Origin: Gammaproteobacteria bacterium
GTDB lineage: Bacteria > Pseudomonadota > Gammaproteobacteria > CBDBNL01 > JAAOII01
DNA: 64,000 nt
Direction of reading: 5' to 3'
Assembly: GCA_965209035.1 (NCBI GenBank)
Contig: OZ242372.1
Coordinates: forward strand, 1,888,001-1,952,000
Shown: piece by piece, positions 22,207 to 60,727 of the stretch
Layout of the letters: every line of letters starts with the position of its first letter
Numbering within the stretch: position 1 is the stretch's first letter
Notes under the pieces: model-generated
What the model was told of the DNA's origin: nothing
Databases searched by the model: none
What the model saw: only the letters and a program-made list of their open reading frames with translations
Translations under genes and position numbers: made by a program

Positions 22207-22314
22207 CAAGGACTTAATGCGTTAGGACGTTATGGTGTTAGGGTCAATGTCTTTGTGAGAAAGGCCACTGCCGATCACAAGGACTTAATGCGTTAGGACG
22301 TTATGGTGTTAGGG
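22207..22314. repeat. Perfect 37-bp direct repeat pair flanking a 34-bp unique segment
   Basis: caaggacttaatgcgttaggacgttatggtgttaggg at 22207-22243 and 22278-22314; the second copy contains the mcrC stop codon. Confidence 0.95.
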
Positions 22315-23759
22315 CCTGCAGGGGATGGATGTTGTGATGCCTGTTTGATGATTGTTTTCAGTTCCTTTTCTGTTTTTATTAGAACCTTATTGGCCGGTCC
22401 TGCCTCCAATGCCGATGACAGGTCGACCGGAACGATGTACAAATCAAGCCCGCGGTTCAAATTGTCGGCGTTTTGTTGTTTCATTTCTTCGAAAGGCTCG
22501 CGTAAATGAACAGTGTCCTGAAAGTTCTTGTTCTCCGGGTAAAGCAGTGCCAAGGACACAGGTCGTTTTTCCGCACGTGCATAACGCATACCATAAGAAT
22601 ACAGTTGATAAAGATCCGCCTGCGAGATGCCATAATTGCTTTCCTTGTTTTTCGTATTGATGATTTTCCACTTGGTATCCAGTATGAGGAGTGCCCGGTT
22701 GTCGGGTGAATTTTTGGGGGACCCGGGTCGCATCACCATATCCGGCCTCATTTGAAAACTGATTCCGTTACTTTTCTTTTCTTTCATTAAATAGTGACTT
22801 TGGTCTTGCGATTTGAGATTGTAGTTTTGATCTTGCGCGAAGCCGGACAACTTTTCGGCAACATAGCATTCAAAGACATCGTGCATCTGAAACAGAAGAG
22901 AATACAGTTTTTGTTGTGCCCGCCAACCGGCCGGATGCCATCTTGACAAAATAAGACGCGCCAGCTTTAGCGGGGTGGTGTAGTAATCGCGGATGTTGCG
23001 TTGCAGATGGATGCGTTTGTCCTCTTCCCGCCAATCCTGTGCCTGTGTATGTGTAATAGAGCGGACACCGTCAAAATAAGGAAGGATCTGCATCATCTTA
23101 TTGCGAGTCGCCGTATTCTTTGCCAACATTAATCCTACTTCTATGGCGGCCCTGATGACCCGATTGACCGGCCTGTCCGGGGTGAATTCGTCATACCGGA
23201 CATAAAATCGCTCCTTGTGTGCGAAGTTATGACGCAGATGTTGGTTCATATCCAACTTGCCTTTGAATCGGTATAGGTTATCTTCCCTGGTGACATAGGC
23301 ACGTGCCAGGCCGCGGCGCAGCAGTTTGGTAACCTCCGCATGCAACAGAATTAACAAGAAATCCATCAACGGCAAGTTCTTATGGGTCTCAATATGGACA
23401 TCGTCAATTTGAATCATCTTGTCTCTTGCCAAATAGGCAGCAAGCATCTTGAGAAAGATTTCGCGTGTGTCTTCGTCTTTTTCCGGTTGAGATTTCTTTT
23501 CCGCAGACTGTCCCAGATCAATTTTGGGCAGAACTTCTACCGACGTGCCACCCGGGGTTTCTATGGTGCCGACGAATCCGCGAGCTTGTAACTTCTGATC
23601 TCCTATGCCAAAGAGTTGTTTGGCGTGTTCGTCGTTATATTTGCAAAGACAAGTTTTTAATTCTTTAAAGCGTGTTTTGTTAAGGCGTTCTTTGCCAATG
23701 TTTTTACTGCTTGAATGAATGTACCCAAACTCTCTGACAGTTAAATGGAAGCCGCTCAT
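22293..23759 (-). CDS. mcrC: McrC-family restriction nuclease subunit
   Basis: VEVLPKI, YDEFTPDRPVNR, FECYV, PD-(D/E)xK core MRPDMV...ILDTKWK, SQADLYQLYSYG; 4-nt overlap with the mcrB stop. Confidence 0.92.
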   Translation of the reverse strand: MSGFHLTVREFGYIHSSSKNIGKERLNKTRFKELKTCLCKYNDEHAKQLFGIGDQKLQARGFVGTIETPGGTSVEVLPKIDLGQSAEKKSQPEKDEDTREIFLKMLAAYLARDKMIQIDDVHIETHKNLPLMDFLLILLHAEVTKLLRRGLARAYVTREDNLYRFKGKLDMNQHLRHNFAHKERFYVRYDEFTPDRPVNRVIRAAIEVGLMLAKNTATRNKMMQILPYFDGVRSITHTQAQDWREEDKRIHLQRNIRDYYTTPLKLARLILSRWHPAGWRAQQKLYSLLFQMHDVFECYVAEKLSGFAQDQNYNLKSQDQSHYLMKEKKSNGISFQMRPDMVMRPGSPKNSPDNRALLILDTKWKIINTKNKESNYGISQADLYQLYSYGMRYARAEKRPVSLALLYPENKNFQDTVHLREPFEEMKQQNADNLNRGLDLYIVPVDLSSALEAGPANKVLIKTEKELKTIIKQASQHPSPAGPNTITS

Positions 23760-25894
23760 CCGTTGTCATCGTCCGATTTTTTGTTCTCTGCGTTTTTATA
23801 GATTTCTTGATAACTTCCCGGCTTATTTAAAACATCTTTTAACTCCTGTCCTTCGCGGAGCATCATCTTGCCTTCTTTTGTCTTGCAAAAACCCTTACCC
23901 AGAATCTCGGCAATATCATCGTCTTGTTCGAAATAATACTCTCGTAAAAGGGGGATGATGTTATGTTCAAAGATCTCTTGTAGTTTTTCGAAAGCGTCTT
24001 TTCCGGATAATTGTTTAAGTTTTAAAAAATAACTGTGACCAATTTGGTGATCCCGGTCCAGAAGTTTCTTAATTTTTTTATTGATCTGTTCGAGAAGTTT
24101 TTCGATTTCTATGCCTTCGATATTTACTTCTTTTAAGAGCGTAGGATCCGGCATCACTTCCTCAAAATGAAACCTGCGTCTTAGTGCCGTGTCCAGAAAG
24201 GCAATAGACCTATCCGCCGTATTCATCGTGCCGATTATATAGAGATTGTTTGGGACACCAAATAACTCCTGAGAATAAGGCAGAGTGACGCTTAATGCTT
24301 CGTCATTCCCGATGCGTTTGTCCTCTTCCAACAGAGTAATTAATTCGCCCAGAATTTTGGAAATGTTTCCGCGGTTAATCTCGTCAATAATCAAGACATA
24401 GTTTCCCGGTAAGACATCGCTTTGTTTATATTCTTTAAGGTCTAACTTCTCACGCATGTAATCATAAACTCCACGGACATAAGAAGGAAAATGACCGTCG
24501 TATTCACCGGTCATATATAGTGTTCTTACCCCTTCTATGGATACAGGTATGGGTACAGGGTTTGGATTATTGTTCGTGCTACTCTCGGGTATGATGTAAA
24601 AAGTGTTTTTACTTTTATCCACTATATTAAATTTTTTCTTGTGCCAAATAGTTGCAAAACCCGATAAAATCTTATTTTTGGATTCTTGGCGCAATTCTTC
24701 TATACTCTCAATTGCGTCGCCAAAATAATCTTCTTCGCCTCTTTGTGCAATACTACAAATTTCTTTGAATATACCCGGTTCAACTCTATAAGCAATATTC
24801 CCTTCAACCATCTTCGGCTTGATACCTTCCACAAAATCTTCATAGCCATAACTCTGATGAAATGTTACAAACCTAATCTTGCCTTCATCTCTTAGTTCTT
24901 CATAGCGAGTATTAATACTTTTTCTGTCTCCCGGGATATCCGGTCCGTCAATAATTTTTACCGCTATTTCTTTGGTAATATAAGTTTTGCCTGTCCCCGG
25001 AGGGCCTTGCAAAATCTGATTTAGCGGATATGCGATCTCCGTATCATGATTTTGTATCTCACCGGGTCGCCATTTCTTTTTTAATTCGGGCTGGTAAAAA
25101 GTAAAGCCATTTTTCCATTTTTCTTCTTTGGCAAGGTCATTTCTTATGTCAAAGAGCATACGATCAATCTCTATCTTGGTTTTGTGAGTGGCAGACTCTT
25201 TGGCAAAGGTTTTTACAATTTGACGCTTGGGATCAATGGCCACAATCGCTTCATATGTATCCGGGAACAGGGTGTAAAGAAGGGCATGGCGAGTAGTGCG
25301 GTTCATTGTTATGGGTAAACTTTTTTTCTCTTGTTCTTTTTCCCATCTCTCTAGATATTCTCCAAACTTCCACGCATCGCTTAGCAATGCCTCTTTTTCT
25401 GTCCGGTTTTTGGATGTCCATTTCTGAAAGAAAAGAATGAAATAGTAGAGTTCGCGATGGATATGTGTTTGGAAACCGGTCCCTATCCCTATGAGACCAC
25501 CCAGTGTGTCTGTCAAGTGATACTGTTGAATTTTTATTTTCTTGTCATCCAATTCTTCACCGGACCATCTCCAAATTTCTTTGATTTTTTTTATTTTTGT
25601 TTCCGGTTTTCCGTTTTTTAGAAGATACATGATCCAATAAATTTCAGCCATTAATTGCTTTACTTCTCCGGGGGCATATTCTAAATGAGATTTCAATTTC
25701 TCTATAAAAGTTCCGGTGCCGGTGTCCAAGTTTTCGATAAAGGCATTTTGCAAACCGACGTTAAAGTTCTCATGTGTCCAGAGTTCCTTGTCCGTGAAAA
25801 CAGATTTGTTGTTGAGGAGGCAGCGGTCTTTCCAGTATTCGGCTGCTGTTAATACGGGTGTGGAGTCTGCTCCTTCCCAAATGTATCGTGACAT
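23756..25894 (-). CDS. mcrB: McrB-family AAA+ GTPase subunit (type IV modification-dependent restriction)
   Basis: GPPGTGKT, FVTFHQSYGYEDFVEGIKP, IIDEINRGN, GTMNTADRSIAFLDTALRRRF; about 290-aa N-terminal extension. Confidence 0.95.
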   Translation of the reverse strand: MSRYIWEGADSTPVLTAAEYWKDRCLLNNKSVFTDKELWTHENFNVGLQNAFIENLDTGTGTFIEKLKSHLEYAPGEVKQLMAEIYWIMYLLKNGKPETKIKKIKEIWRWSGEELDDKKIKIQQYHLTDTLGGLIGIGTGFQTHIHRELYYFILFFQKWTSKNRTEKEALLSDAWKFGEYLERWEKEQEKKSLPITMNRTTRHALLYTLFPDTYEAIVAIDPKRQIVKTFAKESATHKTKIEIDRMLFDIRNDLAKEEKWKNGFTFYQPELKKKWRPGEIQNHDTEIAYPLNQILQGPPGTGKTYITKEIAVKIIDGPDIPGDRKSINTRYEELRDEGKIRFVTFHQSYGYEDFVEGIKPKMVEGNIAYRVEPGIFKEICSIAQRGEEDYFGDAIESIEELRQESKNKILSGFATIWHKKKFNIVDKSKNTFYIIPESSTNNNPNPVPIPVSIEGVRTLYMTGEYDGHFPSYVRGVYDYMREKLDLKEYKQSDVLPGNYVLIIDEINRGNISKILGELITLLEEDKRIGNDEALSVTLPYSQELFGVPNNLYIIGTMNTADRSIAFLDTALRRRFHFEEVMPDPTLLKEVNIEGIEIEKLLEQINKKIKKLLDRDHQIGHSYFLKLKQLSGKDAFEKLQEIFEHNIIPLLREYYFEQDDDIAEILGKGFCKTKEGKMMLREGQELKDVLNKPGSYQEIYKNAENKKSDDDNG

Positions 25895-26214
25895 AATGAT
25901 TTTTATTTTTCTATTTCTTAATGTTTAATCCGCCATTCAGTTAATGGCGGTGATAGATGTATTTTACTCGTTTTTCGGGGGGCAAGCATTTTGAGTGGCT
26001 TCTTTCATATATAACAAACTTTATTCGTTTGGCTTCATATATACCTCATATTCAAAGTATTTTTTCCAATGCAACTTAATCATGCAACCTACACACAACT
26101 TGGGGGGAGTTTTTACGCAAACAAACCGGAAACAAACGAAGCAAGATGCATCTGAACAAAACCGGTTTCTCGGTCTTTGGGTTTATTCACTTGAAGCGAT
26201 CACGAACAGGGTTT

Positions 26215-27168
26215 TTATGCCTTACTGCCATATAGTGCTTTATACAATTTATGCCACTTTTCCTTATATCCCGCTTCGTAAAAGTCAAAGCTTTTTTTCG
26301 CGCTGTTATTTACAAATAGTTTATTCTCTTCTTCTTTGCGTATCAGATACAGTAATTTGTCGTTTTCCAGTCTGTTCTCGCTCTTTTCTTTCGCCTCGTT
26401 TATTCTGCCCCATGCTATTATGATCGCCGCATGATGGCTTCGGTGCAGTATTCGTTCATAGTAATCCGGGAATAGGAGATACAACAGGGCGTGGCGAATT
26501 GCGGTGTTGTATAGTTTGATAGTTGAACCCTGTTGCCGCGTCTCCCGCTCCACCCGAACACTGTGCGATTCTTCCCATGTTTGCAAGTATTTGCCAAACT
26601 TCCAAGGATTGCAACATTCCCGTGGATCTCCCCATAACAAGTCCTCTTGTTCTGTCTGGGATTTTGACTTCCAATCCTGTAACCAAAGAGTGCAATAGTA
26701 TAGTCCTTGCCATGCATAATCAATAATGATTTTGAACTCGGCAATTCCATCCTGCAGACAATCAAGGAGCATCTTGTTTATTCGTCCTGTTTCGGGGAAA
26801 ATTTCCTTCGGGCCCGACCATTCCCATATTGTTTTAATGTCTTGGATTTTACTATCCTTTCTTTTGGTGTAGTTTGGCAACATTAACATCATGAACCAGT
26901 AGATTTCGGCGACCAGTTGTTTTACTTCCGGCGGGGCGGATTTTAACTGATTCTCCAAACTCCCAATGAAATGACCTCTTTTAATGTTCAAGTTTTCAAT
27001 ATAGTGGGTTTGCAAATGTTTAAAGTTCTCCGGCGTCCAGAGTTCCTTATCCGTGAAAACGGATTTGTTGGCGAGCAGGCATCTGTTTTTCCAGTATTCC
27101 ACCGCATTCAGAATAGGGGTTATGTTTTTGTCTTCCCCATTCTCATCTTTCCCAATGTAACGAGCCAT
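26215..27168 (-). CDS. Stand-alone paralogue of the McrB N-terminal domain
   Basis: Aligns by eye with McrB residues 1 to about 280 (EYWK.RCLL.NKSVFTDKELWT.ENF; EVKQL.AEIYW; WKFG.YL; RHALLY.LFPD.YE); lacks the AAA+ domain. Confidence 0.88.
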   Translation of the reverse strand: MARYIGKDENGEDKNITPILNAVEYWKNRCLLANKSVFTDKELWTPENFKHLQTHYIENLNIKRGHFIGSLENQLKSAPPEVKQLVAEIYWFMMLMLPNYTKRKDSKIQDIKTIWEWSGPKEIFPETGRINKMLLDCLQDGIAEFKIIIDYAWQGLYYCTLWLQDWKSKSQTEQEDLLWGDPRECCNPWKFGKYLQTWEESHSVRVERETRQQGSTIKLYNTAIRHALLYLLFPDYYERILHRSHHAAIIIAWGRINEAKEKSENRLENDKLLYLIRKEEENKLFVNNSAKKSFDFYEAGYKEKWHKLYKALYGSKA

Positions 27169-27429
27169 AATTTATATTCTTTTGTGATGTAAATGTATTA
27201 CTTAAATTCCCGGTTAATTTGCATCTGCGATATTGATGTAAAGCATTGTAAGAGGATAACGGCAAAAATCCGGCAAGATCCGACACAACATACTATCTGT
27301 GAAATGTCCCTGTGATACCAAATGGGAACAGAGTTTCGTCGTTTTAGCCATTAGGGCAATATTTTAGTTAAGTTAAAATGGTGTGATGGAATATAAAGTT
27401 TTCTACGCAAGACCCCTGTTTTATTATTG

Positions 27430-28395
27430 ATGAGCATTACATACCATAATCAACAGTTCGCTTCCGCTGGCTATCCGCAGGTCTTTGTGATTAATTTACG
27501 CCGTAGCGCGGAAAGGCGCGAGAGTGTCCGGGAGCAACTCGGCAAGGCGAATATTCCCTATGCTCTGGTTGAAGCCGTTGACGGTAAGGAGATAACGGCG
27601 GATACTCTGGCTGCTTATAACTATTTCAAGGGTCAAAGAAAAGAATTGCCGGCGAACAATACTGCCTACCTCAATGGCGGTAAGAACTATCAGATACTAT
27701 CTTCAATTCTGGATCACGATATGGCAACGGGGGAAATAGGCTGTTTTCTCAGCCATTGCAAGATATACGCTCATATCCTCCAACACAAAATCCCGCTGTC
27801 AGTGATTTTGGAAGATGATGTATTGCTATCGCCGGATTTTTGCAAGGCACTCCTCGGATTAAAAAATTATTATCATGAGTATGGGGTTATTTTTCTGGGG
27901 ACTCACTACTTCCGCCCCAAATCTTTTATAGAAAAAAACTGTCCTATGTCCTTGTGGGGAAGAAAGAAGGTAACATCCGCGACAAAACTGGGTCATTTTA
28001 TTGATATCCCGTTTGCTTCTCATGGTTATGCGGTTTCTTGGCAGGGGGCTTGCGGTCTGCTTTCTCTCGCCATGCCGATGAGTGTTCCTTTGGATTGGTT
28101 ATTCACTCTTGGTCTTTATGACGATCGCTATCAAATTGCAGGCGTGAAACCTGAGATCGCCATGCAAGATCCTTCGAAAAATTCTACGATAGAAAGACAA
28201 CCCCGAGTTAATTCGACTGACTATGGACCCGGGAGGATACCTTGGAAAAATTATTTGAAGAAACGGTTTCCGTTATTACATCGTTTCTGGCTGGCAGTCA
28301 GGCAGGCAAGGTTGGCGGTCAGGCAGGCGGTCAAGCACTTGTGCAAACGGCTGAGGACAACCATGCTTCAGATGCTTCCAATCCGGCAGGTTTGA
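27430..28395 (+). CDS. Glycosyltransferase family 25 (LPS/LOS biosynthesis), copy 1
   Basis: FVINL..S.ERR, EAVDG, GEIGCFLSH, ILEDDV. Confidence 0.9.
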   Translation: MSITYHNQQFASAGYPQVFVINLRRSAERRESVREQLGKANIPYALVEAVDGKEITADTLAAYNYFKGQRKELPANNTAYLNGGKNYQILSSILDHDMATGEIGCFLSHCKIYAHILQHKIPLSVILEDDVLLSPDFCKALLGLKNYYHEYGVIFLGTHYFRPKSFIEKNCPMSLWGRKKVTSATKLGHFIDIPFASHGYAVSWQGACGLLSLAMPMSVPLDWLFTLGLYDDRYQIAGVKPEIAMQDPSKNSTIERQPRVNSTDYGPGRIPWKNYLKKRFPLLHRFWLAVRQARLAVRQAVKHLCKRLRTTMLQMLPIRQV

Positions 28396-28415
28396 GGCGG
28401 AATTGTTTTCATCGG

Positions 28416-29348
28416 ATGAGCATTACATACCATAATCAACAGTTCGCTTCCGCCGGCTATCCGCAGATCTTTGTGATTAATTTACGTAGCAGTGCGGAAA
28501 GACGCGAGAGTATCCGGGAGCAACTCGGCAAGGCGAATATTCCCTATGCTTTGGTTGAAGCCGTTGACGGCAAGGAGATAACGGCGGACACTCCGGCTGC
28601 TTACAACTATTTTAAGAATCAAAGAGAAGAATTGCCGGCGAACAATACTGCCTACCTCAATGGCGGTAAGAACTATCAGATACTATCTTCAATTTTAGAG
28701 CATGATATGACAACGGGAGAAATAGGCTGTTTTCTCAGCCATTGCAAGATATATGCTCATATTGTTGAACACAAAATCCCGCTGTCAGTGATCTTGGAAG
28801 ATGATGTGTTGCTATCGACGGATTTCTGCAAGACGCTCCTTGGATTAAAGCATTATTATCACGAGTATGGGGTTATTTTTCTGGGGACTCACTACTTCCG
28901 GCACAAATCTTTTATAGAAAAAAATTGCCCTATGTACTTGTGGGGAAGAAAGAAGGTGACATCTAAGACCAAACTGGGTCATTTTATTGATATCCCGTTC
29001 GCTTCTCATGGTTATGCGGTTTCTAGGCAGGGGGCTTGTGGTCTGCTTTCTCTTGCTATGCCGATGAGTGTTCCTTTGGATTGGTTACTCACTCTTGGTC
29101 TTTATGACAATCGCTACAAAGTTGCAGGCGTAAAACCTGAGGTCGCAGTGCAGGATCCTGCAAAAAATTCCACGATAGAAAGGCACCCCGGGGTTAATTC
29201 GGCTGATTATGGACCCGGGAAAATACCTTGGAAAAATTATCTGAAGAAACGGTTTCCATTATTACATGGTTTCTGGCTGGCGTTCAGGCACTTTCGCCGC
29301 CGGCTGATGACAACCATGCTCCAGATTTTTCCGACCCGGCCGGCTTAA
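28416..29348 (+). CDS. Glycosyltransferase family 25, copy 2
   Basis: Same motifs; start set at MSITYHNQQ by homology to copy 1. Confidence 0.9.
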   Translation: MSITYHNQQFASAGYPQIFVINLRSSAERRESIREQLGKANIPYALVEAVDGKEITADTPAAYNYFKNQREELPANNTAYLNGGKNYQILSSILEHDMTTGEIGCFLSHCKIYAHIVEHKIPLSVILEDDVLLSTDFCKTLLGLKHYYHEYGVIFLGTHYFRHKSFIEKNCPMYLWGRKKVTSKTKLGHFIDIPFASHGYAVSRQGACGLLSLAMPMSVPLDWLLTLGLYDNRYKVAGVKPEVAVQDPAKNSTIERHPGVNSADYGPGKIPWKNYLKKRFPLLHGFWLAFRHFRRRLMTTMLQIFPTRPA

Positions 29349-29368
29349 GGCGCAATGATTCCAATCGG

Positions 29369-30349
29369 ATGAGCATTGAATATCATAATCAACAGTTCGC
29401 TTCCGCGGGTTATCCGCAGGTGTTCGTCATTAATTTATCGCGCAGCGTGAAAAGACGCAAGAGCATGCTGGAACAACTTGGCAAAGTAAATATTCCTTAC
29501 GCTCTGGTTGAAGCCATTGACGGCAAGGGTATAACGGCAGATGCTCCGGCTGCTTATAACTATTTCAAGGATCAAAGAGAAGAATTGCCAACGAATAATA
29601 CTGCCTATCTTAAAAGTTTCATGCTGCCCGGCGGCGGAAAAAACTTTCAAGTGTCATCTTCAATTATAGATCGCGATATGACGAGAGGAGAAATAGGCTG
29701 TTTTCTCAGTCATTGCAAGATATACGCTCATATCCTTCAACACAAAATCCCACTGTCAGTGATTTTGGAAGATGATGTGTTACTATCGCCGGATTTTGGT
29801 GATGTGCTCCTTGGGTTAAAACATTATTATGATGAGTATGAAGTGATTTTTCTTGGCACTAACTACTCCGGTTACAGATCTTTGATAGAGGAAGGCTGCC
29901 CTGTCTCTTTGTGGGGAAAAAAGAAGGTGACATCCGCGACTAAAATAGGTCATTTTGTTGATGTTCCCCTTGGTAGTCATGCTTATGTTGTTTCTTGGCG
30001 AGGGGTTCGCTGTCTGTTTTCTCTGGCTATGCCGATGAGCATTCCATTGGATTTGATGCTTACTCTTGGTTTCTATGATAATCGCTATAAAATTACAGGC
30101 ATAAAACCGGAGGCTGTCATGATAAAAGAAGATTTACAGAAAAATTCTGCAATAGATGGAATAGATATACGGCCGATGCTGCTTGTCAGACCGCCCTGGA
30201 GAGACAGGCTGGAAAAATGGCTTCCCTTATTACATCATTTCCTACGTGTGCTCTGGCGCTTTCCCCGACGTCTGAGAATAACCATGCTCCAGGTTTTTCC
30301 AACCTGGCCGGCTCAAAAGACGAAATTATTCCAATCGGATGAGCATTGA
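29369..30349 (+). CDS. Glycosyltransferase family 25, copy 3 (more divergent)
   Basis: Same motifs; start at MSIEYHNQQ. Confidence 0.9.
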   Translation: MSIEYHNQQFASAGYPQVFVINLSRSVKRRKSMLEQLGKVNIPYALVEAIDGKGITADAPAAYNYFKDQREELPTNNTAYLKSFMLPGGGKNFQVSSSIIDRDMTRGEIGCFLSHCKIYAHILQHKIPLSVILEDDVLLSPDFGDVLLGLKHYYDEYEVIFLGTNYSGYRSLIEEGCPVSLWGKKKVTSATKIGHFVDVPLGSHAYVVSWRGVRCLFSLAMPMSIPLDLMLTLGFYDNRYKITGIKPEAVMIKEDLQKNSAIDGIDIRPMLLVRPPWRDRLEKWLPLLHHFLRVLWRFPRRLRITMLQVFPTWPAQKTKLFQSDEH

Positions 30350-52845: not shown

Positions 52846-55602
52846 CTAAGACGATTTGCTGTTTGTGGCTGCGGCGGGCGGCGGGTTGAGAAGTTTTGGG
52901 AGGTCCTTGCGCAGGATCTTACCGACCGGCGATTTGGGAAGGACATCCGCAAACACGATGCGGTCGGGGATCTTGTAAGCGGTCAGCGAACCCCGGCAGT
53001 GTTTCAGCAGAGCCTCTGCGGTGCATTCCTCACCCTTCTTTGGAACAATAAAAGCGACAATCTCTTCGTCATCCTGCTCGTTCTTGATCCCGATACAACC
53101 GCTTTCGGCAACGGCGGGGTGTTTGTCCAGCACTTTTTCTATTTCGCTCGGATACACATTAAAGCCCGAAACAAGGATCACATCCTTCGCCCTGTCCACC
53201 AGATAGATGTAGCCCTTGTCGTCCATATAGCCGATGTCGCCGGTATTCAGCCATCCGTCCGTGCTCAGATCCTTTGCGGTCGCTTCGGGGTTCTCCCAAT
53301 AGCCCGCCATCACCTGCGGACCGCGCACAAACAACAGCCCCACGTTACCGGTTGATACGGGAGTAAGAGTTTTCTCGTCCAGGATAACGGCGAGAGTGGA
53401 CGGCACAGGTAAACCAATGCTGCCGTTGAATTCTTTTTGGTCGTAAGGATTGATCGTAATCACAGGCGATGCCTCGGTCAGACCATAGCCTTCTTTTAGC
53501 AGAACCCCGGTTGCCTTTTTCCAGTCGGCGGCAACCTTCGGATGCACCGCCATGCCGCCGCCGAGGGCGAGTATGAGTTTGCTAAAATCCAAAGTGGCAA
53601 ATTGCGGATGCGCCAGCATCGCTTTGAACAGCGTATTAACGCCGTCTATGCCGTGAAAGGTGTATTTTTTCATCGTCTTGATCAGCCCGTTGATGTCGCG
53701 CGGATTTGCCACCAAGACATTGTGCGCGCCTATGTGAAAAAAGAAGATACCGTTTACGGTGAGCGCGAAAATATGATACAACGGCAGGGCGGTCAGAGTC
53801 ACTCTTTGCTCCTCGGTGGAATCGCAGAAGTTGCGGGATACATGCGCGTAGCACTGGGCGACATTGGCGACCATGTTCCGATGGGTGAGGACAACCGCCT
53901 TGGGTTCGCCCGTGGTGCCGCCGGTAAACTGCAGAAATGCCATATCCTCCGCTGCGATATGCGGGTGATAAAAAGAGCATTTGGCGCCTTGCCGCAGGGC
54001 AGTGCGAAATCCGATGCCGGGCGGACGGCCGAACACAGGTTGCTTGCCTTTCAAGCTCAACACAAGATGGATGAGAACTCTTTTGAGCGGCGAAAGCATA
54101 TCCCCCAGACCGGTAACGATGAGATGTTGCGGGACGAGTTCCTTGGGGCAGGCATTAACTATCTTGAGTGCGCCGCTCCAAACGATCAACACTTTGGGGC
54201 GGGAGATACGCAGAATGGTGGTTAATTCTTCCGCCGTATATAGCGGGTTAATATTGACTACCGCGCCGCCGGCCGCCAAAGCGGCATAAACACTTAAAAG
54301 ATACTGACTGCAGTTCGGCATCATAATGCCAACGCGATCGCCTTTCTTGAGCTGCGAATGTGTCTGCAGCCATGCGGCCAGATGATTGTAGTGTCGGTGA
54401 ACCTGCGTATAGGTTGTCTTGCAACCAAACTCTTCGCATGCCACCCGTTCCGTATTTTCGGCACAGGCGATTTCAACAAGTTCCGCCAGGTTACGCCGAA
54501 CTTCCGTATTGGCAAACGGCGGCGTATCCGGCGGATAGTTGTGCCGCCAGTAGGGTTCCACCCGAAGATCCATAATTCGGGTGCCAGTCGCGATTTGCGG
54601 CTGCTCCTTGCCGGCGATCAGCCGTCTTGCAAAATCGTTGAATACCCTGTCCATAGCGCGCAAATAATTTTCTGTCAGTTCTATCAGGTTCCCAACATTT
54701 TCTTCGGTCGCCAGATCAATGGTATCGGTTTTCTCGTCCGGCAATATGGGGTCAAGCCGCAGATAGCCTTCGGGACTATCGTGAAAGATGGCTTTCATTT
54801 GCTCGTGTCCCTGAATCACGCCGATATCACTCATCAGTTCCACCAAGGGTGCGGCCCATTCCAGTTTCCCCCATTTCTTAATTTCTTTTGGCTCATATTG
54901 TTCCCGATAGAACCCGCCGCCGAGAGACAGAACATTCAAGTGCTTGGCGGATGCGTCCGGAAACAGTCGTCTGATTTCGGCATATGCCAGAAGTGCCGGG
55001 TTACGGGAATAGATGCCGCCGTCCACAAACAAGTATTCTTTCTTGGCAATGCTGGAAATTTCCGCGGGCGGAAAATAAGTCGGCGCACTGGAGATAGCCC
55101 GACACAGATCGCGCATGTAAAAGTTTTCTGCCGGGTTATGCCGGGCGCGATACTGCCGAAACAAAAAACATTCGTTGCCAAGCATATCATAGGCGGTGCT
55201 CAAATAGGGCTTGATGAGTTGGCTTAGTTTGACATCACCGCAATGTTTTTGAAAAACCTTTTCTATGGGTTCGCCCGAGTATTTGGGGCTTGTGATACGA
55301 TGTCCCCTGAGTGCCCTTTGCACTTTATTCAGAGCGAAGGCAATCCCGCCGCTTTCTATGTAAATCTCTTCGGTTTGTTTCGCCGAATGGCACGGCGAGA
55401 TCCCGTCTTTTTGCGGCATCAGGGCAAGGCTGCCGATTAGGCCGCCGCCGGACGCCCCTACAATAAAATCAAAATAGTCGGCAATACGCGCTTCGGGGTT
55501 GCCGGATAGTTCTTGAAGTCTTTCTTCCAAACGCACCAATACCCGCGCCGCAATAACACCGCGGATCCCGCCGCCGTCTATGGCAAGGATATTGCGTATC
55601 AC
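52846..55602 (-). CDS. Fusion of a patatin-like phospholipase and a long-chain fatty acyl-CoA ligase (FadD-like)
   Basis: Residues 1 to about 330: DGGGIRG, GASGG, SAPTYF, DGG. Residues from about 350: FLQFTGGTTGEPK, EGYGLTEASP, TGDIG, KSPVGKILR. Single uninterrupted 918-aa ORF. Confidence 0.88.
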   Translation of the reverse strand: MIRNILAIDGGGIRGVIAARVLVRLEERLQELSGNPEARIADYFDFIVGASGGGLIGSLALMPQKDGISPCHSAKQTEEIYIESGGIAFALNKVQRALRGHRITSPKYSGEPIEKVFQKHCGDVKLSQLIKPYLSTAYDMLGNECFLFRQYRARHNPAENFYMRDLCRAISSAPTYFPPAEISSIAKKEYLFVDGGIYSRNPALLAYAEIRRLFPDASAKHLNVLSLGGGFYREQYEPKEIKKWGKLEWAAPLVELMSDIGVIQGHEQMKAIFHDSPEGYLRLDPILPDEKTDTIDLATEENVGNLIELTENYLRAMDRVFNDFARRLIAGKEQPQIATGTRIMDLRVEPYWRHNYPPDTPPFANTEVRRNLAELVEIACAENTERVACEEFGCKTTYTQVHRHYNHLAAWLQTHSQLKKGDRVGIMMPNCSQYLLSVYAALAAGGAVVNINPLYTAEELTTILRISRPKVLIVWSGALKIVNACPKELVPQHLIVTGLGDMLSPLKRVLIHLVLSLKGKQPVFGRPPGIGFRTALRQGAKCSFYHPHIAAEDMAFLQFTGGTTGEPKAVVLTHRNMVANVAQCYAHVSRNFCDSTEEQRVTLTALPLYHIFALTVNGIFFFHIGAHNVLVANPRDINGLIKTMKKYTFHGIDGVNTLFKAMLAHPQFATLDFSKLILALGGGMAVHPKVAADWKKATGVLLKEGYGLTEASPVITINPYDQKEFNGSIGLPVPSTLAVILDEKTLTPVSTGNVGLLFVRGPQVMAGYWENPEATAKDLSTDGWLNTGDIGYMDDKGYIYLVDRAKDVILVSGFNVYPSEIEKVLDKHPAVAESGCIGIKNEQDDEEIVAFIVPKKGEECTAEALLKHCRGSLTAYKIPDRIVFADVLPKSPVGKILRKDLPKLLNPPPAAATNSKSS

Positions 55603-56774
55603 ACTCTCTCAAAAATACCGGCGGCGCCCATCCCCGTGCCGATACACATTGTGACCATCCCGTAACGCAGTTTTTGCCGCTTCATCCCATGCAACAGGGT
55701 GGCGGTGCGGATTGCTCCGGTCGCCCCCAAAGGATGCCCCAACGCGATGGCACCGCCAAGCGGGTTGACAAGCGTGCGTTCCAGTTTCAATTCGTTGATC
55801 ACCGCAAGCGTCTGTGCGGCAAAAGCCTCGTTCAATTCTATCCATTGCAGATCTGCGATTTTCAGGTTGCTTTGTTGCAGTGCGCGCGGAATTGCCTCTA
55901 CGGGACCTATCCCCATGATAGCGGGCGGCACACCCGCCACCGCATAGCCGACAAACCGTGCCAGCGGCTCCGCCCCCGTTCGTTTGACAGTTTCCGCATC
56001 CGCCAGCACAGCCAGGCCCGCCCCGTCGCTCACCTGCGAACTGCTACCCGCGGTCACAGTGCCGTCTTTGGCAAATGCCGGTTTCAATCGAGCAAGGGCC
56101 TCGGCCGAGGTGTCGCGCCTGGGACCTTCGTCCCGCGTAACAGTCCGTGGCTTGTTCACTATTTTGTTGCCTTCAAGCAACCGACGGGTGGTCTTAATGG
56201 GCAGGATCTCCGCATCAAAATGGCCCGCTGCCGCCGCCGCACAGGCACGCCGATGACTTTCCAACGCATAGGCATCTTGTTCCTCCCGCCCGACGCCATA
56301 CTGCCGTGCCACATTTTCCGCGGTGATGCCCATCCCATAGGCGATGGCAACATCTTCGTCCTCAAAGAGTTTCGGGTTGAATGCCGGCTTGTTGCCGATC
56401 ATCGGCACCATGCTCATACTCTCCAGTCCGCCGGCAAGAATCAGTTTTGACTTGCCCGTGGCGATGCGATCGGCCGCGACCGCGATGGCTTGCAAGCCGG
56501 ACGAGCAGAGTCGGTTCACCGTCATCGCCGGCACGCTCTGCGGCAACCCCCCCAACAAGGAGCAGATGCGCGCCACATTAAAAGCCTGTTCGCTTTCCGG
56601 CAGGGCGCAGCCCAAAACAACATCGTCAACGGTCTCCGGCTCCAGTTTGGGATGCCGCCGCATCACTTCTTTAATCAAGCGCGCGCACAGGTCATCGCTT
56701 CTGGTATGGGCAAAGACCCCGCGCGCCTTGCCCACGGGCGTGCGCAGTGCGTCAAGGATAAATACTTCGTTCAT
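55599..56774 (-). CDS. fadA: Acetyl-CoA C-acyltransferase (thiolase)
   Basis: VNRLCSSGLQA, NEAFA, GGAIALGHPLGATG, MCIGTGMG. Confidence 0.93.
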   Translation of the reverse strand: MNEVFILDALRTPVGKARGVFAHTRSDDLCARLIKEVMRRHPKLEPETVDDVVLGCALPESEQAFNVARICSLLGGLPQSVPAMTVNRLCSSGLQAIAVAADRIATGKSKLILAGGLESMSMVPMIGNKPAFNPKLFEDEDVAIAYGMGITAENVARQYGVGREEQDAYALESHRRACAAAAAGHFDAEILPIKTTRRLLEGNKIVNKPRTVTRDEGPRRDTSAEALARLKPAFAKDGTVTAGSSSQVSDGAGLAVLADAETVKRTGAEPLARFVGYAVAGVPPAIMGIGPVEAIPRALQQSNLKIADLQWIELNEAFAAQTLAVINELKLERTLVNPLGGAIALGHPLGATGAIRTATLLHGMKRQKLRYGMVTMCIGTGMGAAGIFERV

Positions 56775-56819
56775 TTTCTCAGTTCTCTAAATTCTTAATT
56801 CCTTAGTTTCCTAATTTCC

Positions 56820-59258
56820 TTAGTTTCTAAGCGGCTTACCGGTCTTCAAAATATGTTCTATGCGTTTTTGCGACAGGCTCGTCTTAAGCAGACGCAAGAA
56901 CCCCTCGCGTTCCAGTTGCAGAAGGTATGCGTCGCTCGCCGTTTGGTCGGCATCGGTTTCCCCGCCGCAAAGAACATTGGCGATTTCGGCGGCACAGAAA
57001 TAATCGTGTTCGGATATAAAGTTGCCGGCGCGCAAATTGGTAAGCTGTGCGAGAAAATTACCTTTGCCCGGCCTGCCGGCAATCTTAATATCATTGCGCC
57101 GGTACGGCGGCCGATAGCTGCCGCGCATCAATTCCAGGGCGGAGCTGCGCGCCACATAAAGCAATTCCTGCGGGTTGGCGATTACTTTATCCGCCGCGCG
57201 CAGATACCCCATTCGCCGAGCATCGTCCGCACCGGATGCAACCTTGGCGAGAGCGATCTGCTCATAAAACTTTGCCAGAAACGGAAAAAGCGGGGTCTCG
57301 CCCGCGCACTCTTCGGCACGGCGCGCCATTTCCTTGCTGCCGCCGCCGGCCGGCAGGACGCCGACACCGATTTCAACCAAGCCAATAAAACTGTTCGTCG
57401 TTGCCACCACCCGATCGCAGTGCAACAACAGTTCGCAGCCGCCGCCAAGTGCCAAGCCGTCAACCGCCGCCACCACCGGAATGTCGCCGTGTTTGAACGA
57501 CATGCAAATGTTCTGCAATCTTTGGATCACCTCCCGTATGGGCGGCAACTTTCCGAGTTTCGGCAGTTTCGGATTGAGGGCCTCAAATGCCCGCATTTTA
57601 ATGTCCGTTAGCATCCCGCTTTGTTCGTAAGCGCCGAGTTTGGCACTCGCCAAAATCTGATACAAATTGGCGCCCGCACAAAAGGGGGCTTCTTCTTGCC
57701 AAAGAATGAGCGCGCCATATTCCGCGGTCGCCTTTGCCCAAACGGTTTCAAGATCTTTAAGAAGTTCGTAAGAAATCGTATGCATCTTGGTTTTGAAGTT
57801 AACCGCCAGAATTTCATCGCCCAGGTCGGTCGCCCGCAACCATTCCGTTTCCTCAACAACCTTTAACTGCGGGATCTTTTCGGCGGACATCACCAAAGGT
57901 GCCAGGTCGGTCGGCTGGTTTTTGGTTGGCAGGTATTCCTTGGCGGCCGGAGACCAGGCACCCTTGTTATTGTAGAAGCCGTCCGGCGGAGTGGGCGGCA
58001 ATTTCGCATCGCTCATCGCCCGCCCTTCTCTAATGTCTTCTTCAATCAGAGCGGTCAGGGACTTGCCGCCGGCAGACTGCCACAAGGAAAAGATACCGTC
58101 CTTCCAGCCGAAGCCGTGCCGCATGGCAAGATCCGCAGCGCGCGCCGTCTCCGCCAGTTCGGGCAGATGCGTCAGGGCATAATGAAACTGATCGCGATGA
58201 ACGGCCCACAAAAACTGACAGTGGGGGTCTTTAGATTCCCGCAGCTTCGGCAAGGCGGCGGCGATGCCATCGCCGAGCAGTCGCCTGCACTCTTTGGAAA
58301 TTTTCTTGTCCGCGGTACGATAGTCGTTTGTCTCGGTATCAAATACCAGAATATCCTTGCCGACCTTTTTGTAAATGCCTTTGCCGGTTTTTTGCCCGAG
58401 ACTGCCGGCGGCTACCATCTTGGTCATCCACTCCGGCGGGGCGAAGTGTTGCCGCCACGGATCCTGTTTCAATACTTCCGTCAGATTGTTCATCACCGCG
58501 ATGATGATATCCAACCCGACCAGATCCGCCGTGCGAAAGCAAGCACTCTTGGCACGGTTAATGCGTGTCCCGCAAAGAGCGTCCGCCGTGTCAAAACCGA
58601 TGCCCAAACGCCGGGCATGGAAAAGGGCGGCCGCCATACCAAACACACCGAGGCGATTGGCAATAAACCCGGGCGAGTCCTTCGCCCGCACCGTCTGCTT
58701 GCCCGCAACGGAAGTGAGAAATCGTTCCAACTGCGCCGCCGTTTCCTTGTCCGCCTTTTCGTGCATGATCAATTCCGTCAGTGGCATATAGCGCGGCGGA
58801 TTAAAGAAATGCATACCAAAAAATCGTTGCCGCAGACTTGCCGGCATCCACTCACTCATCCGCGTGATACTCAAAGCCGAGGTGTTGGAAGCCAGAATGG
58901 CGTTGGAATTCAAATGCGGGATGACCTTGCCGTAAACCGACTTTTTAATGTCAAGGTTTTCGCTGACCGCTTCTATGACCAGATGGCGATCTTTCAGAAG
59001 CGGCAGATTATCCTTGTAAGAGGCGGGGCGAATACGCCCCCCCCAATTCGGCAGTGCCAAGGCCGGCGGTTTGAGTGACTTGAGATTCTTAATCGCCTTT
59101 TGGGCCGTCGCGTTTGGATCTTCTGCCTCTGTCAGACCGAACAGGACAACATCCAGCCCGCAGTTGGTCAGGTGAGCGGCAATCTGCGCGCCCATAGTGC
59201 CGGTGCCAAGCACAGCAATGTGCTTAAATTCCCGATACAAGTGCGTTTCTCTCGTCAT
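56820..59258 (-). CDS. 3-hydroxyacyl-CoA dehydrogenase / enoyl-CoA hydratase (FadN-type domain order)
   Basis: GTGTMG, SNTS, HFFNPPRY, PGFIANR, followed by a crotonase domain (ALGGGCE, GLVEIGVGVLPAGGG). Confidence 0.92.
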   Translation of the reverse strand: MTRETHLYREFKHIAVLGTGTMGAQIAAHLTNCGLDVVLFGLTEAEDPNATAQKAIKNLKSLKPPALALPNWGGRIRPASYKDNLPLLKDRHLVIEAVSENLDIKKSVYGKVIPHLNSNAILASNTSALSITRMSEWMPASLRQRFFGMHFFNPPRYMPLTELIMHEKADKETAAQLERFLTSVAGKQTVRAKDSPGFIANRLGVFGMAAALFHARRLGIGFDTADALCGTRINRAKSACFRTADLVGLDIIIAVMNNLTEVLKQDPWRQHFAPPEWMTKMVAAGSLGQKTGKGIYKKVGKDILVFDTETNDYRTADKKISKECRRLLGDGIAAALPKLRESKDPHCQFLWAVHRDQFHYALTHLPELAETARAADLAMRHGFGWKDGIFSLWQSAGGKSLTALIEEDIREGRAMSDAKLPPTPPDGFYNNKGAWSPAAKEYLPTKNQPTDLAPLVMSAEKIPQLKVVEETEWLRATDLGDEILAVNFKTKMHTISYELLKDLETVWAKATAEYGALILWQEEAPFCAGANLYQILASAKLGAYEQSGMLTDIKMRAFEALNPKLPKLGKLPPIREVIQRLQNICMSFKHGDIPVVAAVDGLALGGGCELLLHCDRVVATTNSFIGLVEIGVGVLPAGGGSKEMARRAEECAGETPLFPFLAKFYEQIALAKVASGADDARRMGYLRAADKVIANPQELLYVARSSALELMRGSYRPPYRRNDIKIAGRPGKGNFLAQLTNLRAGNFISEHDYFCAAEIANVLCGGETDADQTASDAYLLQLEREGFLRLLKTSLSQKRIEHILKTGKPLRN

Positions 59259-59327
59259 TTATTTATCCTTCACTTTCAACTTCAACTTCGGCAATTCGGC
59301 CGGCAATATTTGCAAGGTTTGCTATAT

Positions 59328-59735
59328 TTAAAGAATCTTGAATTCCCCGTCCAGCACCCGCACACTGCCGGAAAACTTGCGTTGCAGATACACCCGCACC
59401 AAAGTGCGCAGCAAATAAACGCGAAGGGCGGGAACGAGCAACAAGAGACCGATACTGTCGGTAATGAATCCGGGCGTAATGAAAAGACAGCCGGCAACCA
59501 GTAACAGCAAACTGTGCCACAGGGCAAATGCGGGCAGCCGACCCGAGTGCAGTTCGCGATTTATCTTGATCCACAGGGTGACTCCCTGCCGTTTGATGAG
59601 CGACGCCCCGATGAAAGCGGTTAGGACAACCAGCAGGACGGTGGTCAAAGCACCAATCGCACCGCCGACCTCAATCAACAGATAGAGTTCCAAAATCGGA
59701 AAACCGATGAACAGCAAGAAGAGCCAAATCCGCAT
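59328..59735 (-). CDS. fxsA: FxsA family membrane protein
   Basis: PILELYLLIEVG..IG, QG, PGFITD.IGLLLLVP, VLDGEF. Confidence 0.9.
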   Translation of the reverse strand: MRIWLFLLFIGFPILELYLLIEVGGAIGALTTVLLVVLTAFIGASLIKRQGVTLWIKINRELHSGRLPAFALWHSLLLLVAGCLFITPGFITDSIGLLLLVPALRVYLLRTLVRVYLQRKFSGSVRVLDGEFKIL

Positions 59736-59801
59736 CACTCTTTTATTATACAAACTTTCGCATCAATGATGCACCAAAAACCTGCCATAATTTTTGACGG
59801 T

Positions 59802-59912
59802 GATCCAAGTAACACATCGCAAGCATGGGCTGTTGCAACTTGGAACATCATTACGAACGCCCTGTGCCGATGCCGATTCAAGTAACACATTGCAAGCACG
59901 GGCTGTTGCAAC
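59802..59912. CRISPR. Putative degenerate mini-array: two 38-bp repeats and one 35-bp spacer
   Basis: gatccaagtaacacatcgcaagcatgggctgttgcaac (59802-59839) and gattcaagtaacacattgcaagcacgggctgttgcaac (59875-59912), 3 mismatches. The reverse strand reads GTTGCAAC...TTGAATC. The repeat itself is certain; the CRISPR origin is inferred. Confidence 0.45.
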
Positions 59913-60047
59913 CCTGCCGCGCGCTCATCTGCTTTTACCTGCCCGGGCGAGATGCCATACTCTCCCGAAATGCTTTGGTGCTTTCCGGCACACTTAACAA
60001 AGTTGCCTGTATTTAATGATGCCCCGCCGGAATTGTTTGGCTTAACC

Positions 60048-60431
60048 GGTGCGTTCAAGTGCGGCGACCAAATTGGCACAGGAATAACCTTCCTTTCGCG
60101 GATGCATGCTTGCCTAAAGGGTGCTTTCAAGTGTGGCGATCAAATTGGCACAGGAATAACCTTCCTTTCGCGGATGCATGCTTGCCTAAAGGGTGCTTTC
60201 AAGTGGGGCGATCAAATTGGCACAGGAATAACCTTCCTTTCGCGGATGCATGCTTGCCTAAAGGGTGCGTTCAAGTGGGGCGATCAAATTGGCACAGGAA
60301 TAACCTTCCTTTCGCGGATGCATGCTTGCCTAAAGGGTGCGTTCAAGTGGGGCGATCAAATTGGCACAGGAATAACCTTCCTTTCGCGGATGCATGCTTG
60401 CCTAAAGGGTGCTTCAAGTGGGGCGATCAAA
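60048..60431. repeat. 72-bp tandem repeat, 5 full copies plus a partial sixth
   Basis: Units start at 60048, 60120, 60192, 60264, 60336 and 60408; each contains ttcaagtgNggcgaYcaaa, the comM 3' end. Confidence 0.97.
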
Positions 60432-60598
60432 ATCACAACGATAAGCCAACGCTTCCGTGATGTGATGCTTTTCTGTGACTTCCTTGCCTTCCAAATCCGC
60501 CAGAGTGCGCGCCACCCGCAGCAAGCGATGATAACCGCGCATAGAAATCCCCAACTTGGTGCGCGCCATGTTTAGAATTTCCTTGCCCGCCTGGTCGG
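60413..60598 (-). pseudogene. Duplicated 3' end of comM (186 bp)
   Basis: Matches 60721-60906 at an offset of 308 bp with 5 substitutions. Confidence 0.93.
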
Positions 60599-60620
60599 TC
60601 TTGCCTGCTGGGTGCTTTTC

Positions 60621-60727
60621 TTTTAAGGCGTGGCGATTAAGTGCGGCGTTCAAGTCACCAAAGAACTCTGCGACAAAGTATTAAAGCAGCGTTTTTAAGG
60701 TGCGACGATTAAGTGGGGCATTCAAGT
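60621..60727. repeat. Degenerate 35-bp repeat pair with a 72-bp period
   Basis: ttttaaggcgtggcgattaagtgcggcgttcaagt (60621-60655) vs ttttaaggtgcgacgattaagtggggcattcaagt (60693-60727), separated by a 37-bp unique segment. Confidence 0.8.

Follow-up and report, generated by a model that had tools for sequence, protein, structure and literature searches.

We identified five repeat–insert–repeat modules in a 2.24-Mb gammaproteobacterial genome. Four of these (M1 to M4) lie within the window, the 64,000-nucleotide stretch of DNA analysed here, and the fifth (M5) lies elsewhere in the genome. In every module a local duplication of 36–38 bp surrounds an insert of 34–35 bp (repeat/insert lengths of 37/34, 38/35, 38/34, 37/35 and 36/34 for M1 to M5). 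We consider it about an even call that these modules are non-functional scars left long ago by off-target Cas1-Cas2 integration, most probably through the type V-A CRISPR module resident in this genome. Most documentation of off-target spacer integration comes from Escherichia coli over-expressing type I-E Cas1-Cas2, where the process gives rise to ‘neo-CRISPR’ units (Nivala, Shipman and Church, 2018, Nat Microbiol); in the accessible part of this literature, natural occurrence has circumstantial support from two other species (10.1101/148544). Under our reading, a single genome would keep at least five such scars, and the donor locus can be named for four of them, so that target, insert and source are known base for base. 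The modules would then record, in a natural setting, how CRISPR adaptation in a Cas12a system damages the chromosome that encodes it, or leaves marks there at the least.

All four modules in the window are located where a first-pass annotation of the sequence had placed them. M1 lies at the end of an McrBC-family gene (22293–23759, minus strand). Its two 37-bp repeats are identical (37/37, start-to-start distance 71); the first is intergenic and downstream of the gene (22207–22243), and the second (22278–22314) contains the gene end at 22293 and overlaps the stop codon. A 34-bp insert (22244–22277) separates them. The 38-bp repeats of M2 (59802–59839 and 59875–59912) are identical at 35/38 positions, have a spacing of 73 and flank a 35-bp insert (59840–59874), with the first repeat 49 bp upstream of the start of fxsA (encoding FxsA; 59328–59753, minus strand). 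M3 (approximately 60034–60431) has the structure A-B-A-B-A-B-A-B-A-B-A, in which six A segments of 38–39 bp alternate with five identical B segments of 34 bp. Described as a tandem array, M3 occupies 60048–60431 with a period of 72 bp, 5.3 copies and 98% matches. Its last A segment overlaps the stop codon of a 79-amino-acid copy of a comM 3′ fragment, which ends at 60414.

M4 lies at the end of comM itself (60722–62230, minus strand, 502 amino acids, Mg_chelatase families). Its repeats were first drawn as 35-bp segments (60621–60655 and 60693–60727, 30/35 identical). Based on the source of the insert, we re-drew the module as 37-bp repeats (60619–60655 and 60691–60727, 30/37 identical) around a 35-bp insert (60656–60690), and the second repeat overlaps the comM stop codon (60722–60724). 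The stop-codon overlaps reported for three modules in the first pass are thus real, and involve M1, the last unit of M3 (at the comM copy) and M4. Paired repeats differ by 0–19%, a similarity far beyond chance, and in a blastn-short search of the 2.24-Mb genome none of the module repeats had a further copy.

Four of the five inserts (M1, M2, M4 and M5) have exactly one other full-length match in the genome. Identities between insert and source are 32/34, 34/35, 34/35 and 31/34, respectively (91–97%, or a divergence of 3–9%). The sources are the interior of purA, the start of lpxC and two non-coding sites. The M1 insert copies, on the opposite strand, a segment inside the adenylosuccinate synthetase gene purA (G000:C1:1338899-1338932; Pfam accession PF00709), and the M4 insert copies codons 3–14 of lpxC (G000:C1:2133621-2133655; LpxC, Pfam accession PF03331). 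The M2 insert copies a distant non-coding site (G000:C1:1010370-1010404) that has no Rfam match; the sole reading frame across this site is a 45-amino-acid ORF with a TTG start, which coincides with the first base of the source. Source borders are sharp, the flanks of insert and source are unrelated, and junction microhomology is 0–1 nt, with a single ambiguous 3-nt case at M5. Because purA and lpxC, which contain two of the sources, are conserved genes, copying proceeded from source to module. Inserts of local ancestral DNA, which the first-pass annotation named as a refuting outcome, are not what these four modules contain; each insert is a sharply bordered copy of a single distant locus. 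This origin of the middle segment refutes plain tandem duplication for M1, M2, M4 and M5.

For the M3 insert, neither a source at another place in the genome nor a phage-record match was found, so that M3, taken by itself, could be a plain tandem duplication. We think it very improbable that ordinary slipped-strand or unequal-crossover duplication accounts for the modules as a group, with their shared ~72-bp period a coincidence. What speaks for this idea is that M3, a perfect 72-bp array arranged head to tail, has no outside source, that the genome contains many tandem duplications at gene junctions, and that ~190 bp of the comM end is duplicated next door. Unequal recombination would explain the five-fold amplification of M3, the comM 3′ copy and the duplicated spacer units of the resident CRISPR array, but it has no means of setting a distant locus's copy between two local copies. 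Head-to-tail local copying is seen only in the later amplification of M3.

A scan of the whole genome for isolated A-B-A loci at periods of 40–160 also argues against a coincidental period. We identified 85 such loci, 70 of which have a period divisible by three and are mostly coding repeats; M4, with its period of 72, falls in this class and hence outside the test of the remaining 15. Five of those 15 loci, which are of non-coding type, have a period of 70, 71 or 73 (binomial P 1.5e-4). The peak near 72 bp proposed in the first pass thus appears in the scan at 70–73. Unlike the modules, the other A-B-A loci that we inspected are genuine tandem repeats: their ‘spacer’ is found again in the flanking sequence.

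The genome encodes one type V-A locus, cas12a-cas4-cas1-cas2, in which all four genes are intact. The start of cas12a (intact, 1346 amino acids) occupies 62409–64000 on the plus strand, and cas4, cas1, cas2 and an 89-repeat array lie beyond the window. The genome contains a single Cas1 (176 bits) and a single Cas2, both with open frames. Three of the five modules are located no more than 2.6 kb upstream of cas12a, with the cas4-cas1-cas2 adaptation module 2–8 kb away. The chance of at least three of five modules falling within 5 kb of the cas locus is ~1e-5.

The module duplications (37, 38, 38, 37 and 36 bp) are similar in length to the resident CRISPR repeat (36 nt). Array spacers are 25–29 nt long in 85 of 87 cases, with two outliers of 32 and 33 nt; the inserts, at 34–35 nt, exceed the normal spacer length by ~8 nt and differ from the resident spacers. 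A match between module and resident CRISPR lengths therefore holds for the duplication and fails for the insert, and the first-pass caveat that type V-A spacers run shorter than these inserts was well placed. A full self-match was found for 1/87 array spacers, the 32-nt outlier (32/32), and no TTTV is present at its source. This spacer indicates that a long, PAM-less, self-derived fragment did enter the V-A array. The inserts likewise show no PAM: no TTTV was found upstream of any of the four sources in either orientation, and cas4 is nonetheless intact.

The type V-A system of Francisella novicida U112 provides a biochemical comparison, on the points covered by the available text of one report (Hille et al., 2026; PMC13034035). 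Full-site integration in vitro was obtained only with 27–29-nt prespacers, half-site integration tolerated many prespacer sizes, and spacer length in vivo was unchanged whether Cas4 or Cas12 was present or absent. The canonical reaction depends on the leader-repeat junction and on the repeat's initial six bases, and spacers are TTTN-linked. As far as that text extends, the two systems are alike in their 36-nt repeat, which is duplicated on integration in F. novicida, and in the presence of Cas4, Cas1 and Cas2. They differ in that the targets identified here are non-repeat DNA, the inserts are 34–35 nt long and there is no PAM. When the five targets were compared with nucleotides 1–15 of the repeat in an unbiased test, the summed best match had a P of about 0.10.

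The tight insert length of 34–35 nt, unlike the 25–29 nt of resident spacers, may instead reflect a different Cas1-Cas2 module, with rulers for a 36–38-bp repeat and a 34–35-nt spacer, that has since been lost or that resided on a passing plasmid or phage. Some type I and type III arrays characteristically have a geometry of 36–38 plus 34–35. Such a module would also fit the age of the events, evident in the 3–9% divergence from source, and the available V-A data, in which Cas1-Cas2 alone sets the 27–29-nt length (PMC13034035). The first-pass annotation had similarly suggested that a second Cas1 system may be required. In the genome (2 contigs, 92.7% complete by markers) we found neither an additional Cas1 or Cas2 nor any Cas6 or RAMP gene, and no array of the 36–38 plus 34–35 geometry. 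Two of the four other genomes in the family carry Cas1, and both have arrays of 36 plus 29–31, so that the geometry is not matched in these relatives either. A different module also leaves unexplained why three of five scars sit beside the resident cas operon and how a 32-nt, PAM-less, self-derived spacer came to be in the V-A array. We regard this alternative as unlikely. The divergence of the repeats (0–19%) and of the inserts (3–9%) indicates that the events are old, and they cannot be linked to the enzyme present today.

Somewhat less likely again is a Cas-independent process that combines ~37-bp staggered cuts with capture of short chromosomal fragments, through an unknown nuclease with end-joining or a transposase family that leaves long target duplications. 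Insertions of IS1634-family transposons, for instance, are flanked by long target-site duplications of tens of bp. The mismatch between insert and spacer length and the lack of a PAM are consistent with a process of this kind. However, an IS1634-family insertion is a transposon with defined ends, whereas the inserts here are 34–35-bp stretches of unique or housekeeping DNA; they derive from purA, lpxC and unique non-coding sequence and are not element ends. The clustering of scars beside the cas locus and the equality of duplication length and CRISPR repeat length also argue against a Cas-independent origin. To our knowledge, no other enzyme combines a constant stagger of ~37 bp with a constant insert length of ~35 bp.

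We favor integration by the resident V-A Cas1-Cas2, and we infer both the identity of this integrase and the reason for the ~8-nt excess in insert length. The integrase would join both 3′ ends of a 34–35-nt fragment, drawn from the cell’s own chromosome or that of a close relative, to opposite strands of non-CRISPR DNA at positions 36–38 bp apart. Gap repair would then duplicate the intervening 36–38 bp and generate the repeat–insert–repeat arrangement. Hits would survive only in intergenic DNA or in a gene's final codons, where the end of the gene is restored by the duplication. Unequal recombination probably expanded M3 from a single unit to five, since its five units carry the same insert. 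The real array contains tandemly duplicated spacer units (×4, ×3 and ×2), and amplification of the M3 type thus does occur in this genome. Duplication of the ~190-bp comM 3′ end may reflect the same genome’s ordinary habit of tandem duplication. The length-ruler integration put forward in the first pass has survived tests of period, repeat length and non-local insert origin; its weak points are an unmatched insert length and an enzyme that we only infer.

The 8 nt by which the inserts exceed normal spacers pose a puzzle. An unbent, non-repeat target can perhaps be bridged only by an over-long prespacer, which leads to the testable idea that target shape is coupled to prespacer length. More tentatively, and as a proposal that we find possible but doubtful, the resident V-A integrase may have a second, previously undescribed mode that acts off-repeat, completes both joins only with 34–35-nt PAM-less fragments, and operates mainly near its own genes. 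In such a mode, fragment length would approximate the 36–38-bp target span on ordinary DNA that does not have the shape of the repeat. Off-target scars would then form a distinct length class, as opposed to a random sample of normal spacers, and the 32–33-nt outliers in real arrays would be members of the same class that landed on target.

The modules resemble the E. coli neo-CRISPR units, as described in the accessible portion of that work, in three respects: a spacer-sized fragment lies outside an array, a repeat-length direct duplication flanks it, and its source is self DNA. They differ from those units in occurring in a natural genome with a type V-A system, in having inserts ~8 nt longer than resident spacers, and in clustering beside the cas operon. 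Judged from their sequences, the modules do not work as arrays and are better described as scars. Their repeats are missing the Cas12a handle (the 3′ stem-loop part, ...AATTTCTACTGTTGTAGAT) and have nothing in common with the real repeat in its 3′ half, so the modules cannot produce crRNA. Each module, unlike a functional V-A array, holds one insert, which M3 repeats five times. The first-pass suggestion that arrays are being seeded is not supported, as none of the modules has acquired a further insert of different sequence; this also sets the modules apart from the E. coli units on the published points available. Off-target integration bears on the origin of new arrays, and the scars here have not become arrays.

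The comM copy, for which the first-pass annotation gave no extent, sits between M3 and M4 (60413–60598, minus strand; Pfam accession PF13335). It corresponds to the last 186 bp of comM (~197 bp with gaps) at 97% identity and encodes the last ~58 residues identically, within the 79-amino-acid ORF. The 3′ end of comM, TCAAGTGGGGCGATCAAAAT, resembles nucleotides 2–20 of the CRISPR repeat (no more than 3 edits), and only five other independent sites in the genome match that closely. Within the duplicated segment this repeat-like 19-mer occupies the right-hand end instead of the start, and its register differs.

Three short-read runs from one sample (X1 to X3), probably the sample of the assembly itself, cover much of this region. 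Their unitigs span 59616–60098 and 60534–60773 with 0 differences, which indicates that M2 and M4 are not assembly artefacts. Unitig depth across M3 is ~4-fold that of the flanks. Run X1 also contains a strain of ~93% identity, and among 40 relatives and metagenome contigs we found no closer genome than this strain. One of its unitigs (494 nt, low depth of 6, 27-nt sides) joins 60014 to 60724 and skips 709 bp containing M3, the comM copy and M4; for M1, M2 and M5 no empty site was seen. The sample thus seems to include a related strain without the 709 bp that carry M3 and M4.

We recovered all four modules that the first-pass annotation had reported in the window, each a duplicated segment flanking an insert: the repeat pairs of M1, M2 and M4 and the 72-bp array of M3. 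The M1 repeats (22207-22243 and 22278-22314) are identical at 37/37 positions and lie 71 bp apart, and those of M2 (59802-59839 and 59875-59912) are identical at 35/38 positions and lie 73 bp apart. M3 contains 5.3 copies (98%) of its 72-bp unit, with six 38-39-bp repeat segments and five identical 34-bp inserts. M4 was first drawn with repeats at 60621-60655 and 60693-60727 (30/35 identical) and is best drawn as 37 + 35 once the source of its insert fixes the borders. No further copies of the M1-M4 repeats occur elsewhere in the genome. The neighboring genes, all on the minus strand, are an McrBC-family gene (22293-23759, with an AAA_5 partner upstream), fxsA (59328-59753) and comM (60722-62230), and a 186-bp copy of the comM 3' end (97% identical) stands between M3 and M4. 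The gene map bears out the earlier statement that repeats of three modules overlap stop codons.

Short-read unitigs from runs X1-X3, which represent one sample that is probably the origin of the assembly, reproduce M2 and M4 with 0 differences and have ~4-fold depth over M3. The window contains no Rfam match at gathering scores. A 42-bp tandem repeat (3.5 copies, 78% identity) is present at 8542-8689.

The genome (GCA_965209035.1; 49% G+C) consists of a 2.18-Mb chromosome, C1, and a 65.7-kb second contig. Its type V-A locus begins with cas12a (1346 aa), an open frame that starts at 62409 on the plus strand and extends beyond the window. Outside the window follow cas4, cas1, cas2 and an array of 89 repeats of GTCAAGGGGGGCAATAAAATTTCTACTGTTGTAGAT, each 36 nt long. 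The 87 array spacers are mostly 26 nt (37) or 27 nt (35), with the remainder at 28 (7), 25 (5), 29 (1), 32 (1) and 33 nt (1). The array (C1:1956423-1963270) is broken by a 1330-bp insertion at ~1960040-1961370, and three spacer units are tandemly duplicated within it, one x4, one x3 and one x2. The five identical units of M3 are likewise the product of later recombination. One array spacer also reappears four units further on.

A genome-wide scan for isolated repeat-insert-repeat loci identified a fifth module, M5 (C1:1329194-1329299), in which 36 bp are duplicated (35/36) on either side of a 34-bp insert. Its first repeat spans the stop codon of a gene for an FAD-dependent oxidoreductase. With permissive settings (periods 40-160, at least 24/30 matches) the scan returned 85 loci. 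Periods divisible by three account for 70 of these, mostly coding repeats, including 16 loci at 84 bp and M4 at 72. The remaining 15 have periods of 55, 65, 70, 71, 71, 71, 73, 83, 95, 97, 112, 122, 139, 155 and 160. Just three of the 81 possible period values (70, 71 and 73) hold five of the 15 loci (P = 1.5e-4), and the predicted peak near 72 bp is therefore present, at 70-73 bp. These five are M1, M2, M5 and two older candidates, C1:1118354 and C1:1270088, both with a period of 71, ~79% repeat identity and no detectable source locus for the insert. The start of the C1:1270088 candidate coincides with the stop codon that ends a 363-aa ORF. Dispersed repeat families account for the pair with periods of 55 and 65 and for the loci with periods of 112 and 122. 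Eight further loci that we inspected were set aside as true tandem repeats, in which the ‘spacer’ recurs in the flanks, or as lacking a source.

A self-BLAST screen for short isolated duplicates (55 rows) used a flank filter that left out M1 and M5. From the matches listed we chose by eye 12 short duplicate pairs, or 24 other sites. At 22 of the 24, flank identity does not exceed 0.52, as against a 99th percentile of 0.56 for random sites. The other two sites are weak candidates just past the CRISPR array. One, C1:1963888, copies the 35 nt of C1:133226-133260 and has no more than a partial, CT-rich flank repeat; it stands after degenerate array-end repeats (C1:1963800-1963890), first one with an altered 5' half and an intact 3' handle and then a lone 5' half. 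The other, at ~C1:1967380, copies 36 nt of the Walker-B segment of an ABC-ATPase, and its flank repeat matches at 17/19 positions with a period of 72.

The inserts are copies of distant chromosomal loci. When two module regions were searched against relatives, the extra matches were only in the genome under study itself and coincided with the ‘spacers’. By blastn-short, the M1, M2 and M4 inserts each have exactly one other full-length match in the genome. The M1 insert matches C1:1338899-1338932 (32/34), in the interior of the adenylosuccinate synthetase gene purA; the M2 insert matches C1:1010370-1010404 (34/35), which is non-coding; and the M4 insert matches C1:2133621-2133655 (34/35), corresponding to lpxC codons 3-14. 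The M5 insert matches C1:1384857-1384890 (31/34) with sharp borders. Neither the M2 nor the M5 source has an Rfam match at E 0.01. For M1, M2 and M4, similarity between source and module ends at the insert borders, and at the junctions the source flanks share only 0-1 nt of microhomology with the module repeats. As purA and lpxC are both conserved genes, copying proceeded from these loci into the modules. Inserts M1, M2, M4 and M5 are thus not local ancestral DNA, an origin that would have spoken against the first-pass reading. For the M3 insert, no source was found in the genome or in 50,697 phage records.

The sources lack the shared PAM that the earlier reading led us to look for, as none is flanked by TTTV in either orientation. 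Three inserts contain a C(C/G)GAT word close to their right end, but this was dropped as post hoc and inconsistent with the other inserts. Relative to the replication origin and terminus, as judged by cumulative GC skew (minimum near 1.14 Mb, maximum near 0.05 Mb), the five sources show no significant pattern. A word resembling the repeat start, ATCAAGGGGGGCATAAT, occurs within purA at C1:1338263-1338279, 620 bp from the segment copied into M1, and is probably there by chance.

Several observations connect the modules to the CRISPR locus. First, the duplicated length of 36-38 corresponds to the 36-nt array repeat. Second, M2, M3 and M4 are found upstream of cas12a at distances of 1.7-2.6 kb; by chance, at least three of five modules would fall within 5 kb of the 13.5-kb CRISPR-Cas locus with a probability of ~1e-5. 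Finally, M3 and M4 occupy homologous positions, with a 12-nt offset, each next to one of the two comM-end copies, and this site was therefore hit twice. The comM end, TCAAGTGGGGCGATCAAAAT, matches repeat nt 2-20 with three edits, and a match this good occurs at just five other independent sites genome-wide. Within the duplicated segments, the motif is found at the right end instead of the start. Across the five targets, an unbiased test showed no significant resemblance to the start of the repeat (P ~0.10); it compared the best ungapped match to repeat nt 1-15, from -6 to +10 of the left border, with 20,000 random sets. Counting GTCAAG-like hexamers by hand around the borders gave a more favorable picture than this test, and that count was set aside as post hoc. 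The comM stop and the DNA immediately downstream of it (60691-60741) consist of three tandem ~13-nt TT(A/C)AAG(T/G)G(C/G)GGC(G)A words (TRF period 13), each resembling nt 1-14 of the CRISPR repeat. These may determine a hot spot, stem from repeated partial integration or be a chance occurrence.

Taken together, these features point to off-target Cas1-Cas2 integration: stagger and insert length are both fixed, the junctions are of the ligation type, the self DNA is drawn from single distant loci, modules survive only where a gene end is rebuilt by the duplication, and they cluster next to the genome's only cas1-cas2. An IS1634-type footprint was ruled out, as the inserts are pieces of housekeeping genes. 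Off-target Cas1-Cas2 integration is a known laboratory phenomenon, reported by Nivala et al. 2018 according to papers that cite that study. The modules would belong to this known kind of scar, with an unusual class of insert length. They were first described as seeded arrays; we instead regard them as scars, because they have neither a Cas12a handle nor a PAM-linked source. The repeat pairs have diverged by 0-19% and the inserts from their sources by 3-9%, and the integration events are therefore old.

Which integrase was responsible is less clear, and our confidence that it was the resident type V-A module is evenly balanced. Comparison with the true array supports the expected likeness for the duplication (36-38 versus 36) and contradicts it for the inserts, which at 34-35 nt exceed the normal spacers of 25-29 nt. 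In Francisella type V-A, according to Hille et al. (PMC13034035), half-site integration accepts many prespacer sizes and full-site integration is restricted to 27-29 nt; the six bases that open the repeat and the three that close the leader are important; Cas4 confers the TTTN PAM; and spacer length in vivo is the same without Cas4 or Cas12. The modules differ from that description in both insert length and the lack of TTTV.

The 32-nt array spacer bears on this discrepancy. It alone among the 87 spacers has a full self-match (32/32, to an ABC-ATPase gene at C1:2062514-2062545), that is, one of two long spacers versus 0 of 85 normal ones, and no TTTV adjoins its source. A long, PAM-less, self-derived fragment thus did enter the V-A array. 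An unbent, non-repeat target of ~37 bp might be bridgeable only by a prespacer of similar length, a requirement that would select long fragments off target.

Given the usual shortness of type V-A spacers, the first-pass annotation had suggested that a second Cas1 system may be required. The genome encodes one Cas1 and one Cas2, and our search of it found no Cas6 or RAMP protein. That another, since vanished Cas1-Cas2 module made the scars would account for inserts outside the resident length range; we consider it unlikely, as the genome holds no remnant of such a system and nothing supports it directly. Moreover, the two family relatives with Cas1 have arrays of 36 + 29-31. These arrays, at L110 (G001:C1:742000-761999) and L111 (G002:C1:960000-979999), comprise 147 and 151 repeats of 36 nt that start with GTTGTG, and they adjoin a different Cas1; CRISPR type therefore varies between genera of the family. 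Among the papers listed on neo-CRISPR and non-canonical integration, judged by title and the opening of the abstract, we found none that describes naturally occurring off-target scars in a genome with type V-A.

A search for close relatives with empty sites matched only conserved comM or rnfD-type coding parts in 40 other genomes, none of which is from the same genus. In a metagenome scan with ComM, the best of the 80 loci kept had 53% identity. Run X1 contains a second strain, seen at 59616-60841, that is ~93% identical and has roughly one-quarter the read depth. Its 494-nt unitig (depth 6, versus 20-33 for the window's strain) differs at 14/210 positions across 59616-59825 and jumps from 59825 to 59988, with ~139 unaligned letters replacing 162. 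It then jumps from 60014 to 60724 and into comM, skipping 709 bp that hold M3, the comM copy and M4. Run X4, which comes from another sample, contributes a handful of reads that carry variant letters common to the second strain. This suggests that the short comM-fxsA spacer is an alternative and probably older state, a reading based on one low-depth unitig with 27-nt sides that is uninformative for M2. X4 has 0 reads in 59903-60371, at a depth (~1x here) too low to count as evidence.

We also observed dispersed elements on the chromosome. A MITE-like element of ~105-120 bp is present at more than 80 other places (82-96% identity), and two copies stand in tandem at C1:1197887-1198109 with a period of 122. 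The 1330-bp insertion in the CRISPR array carries a copy of a dispersed ~105-bp element. Copies of a ~140-bp element at C1:578542 and C1:1364585 have an internal direct repeat around a (GT)n(G)n tract, with periods of 55 and 65, respectively, and this tract looks length-variable.
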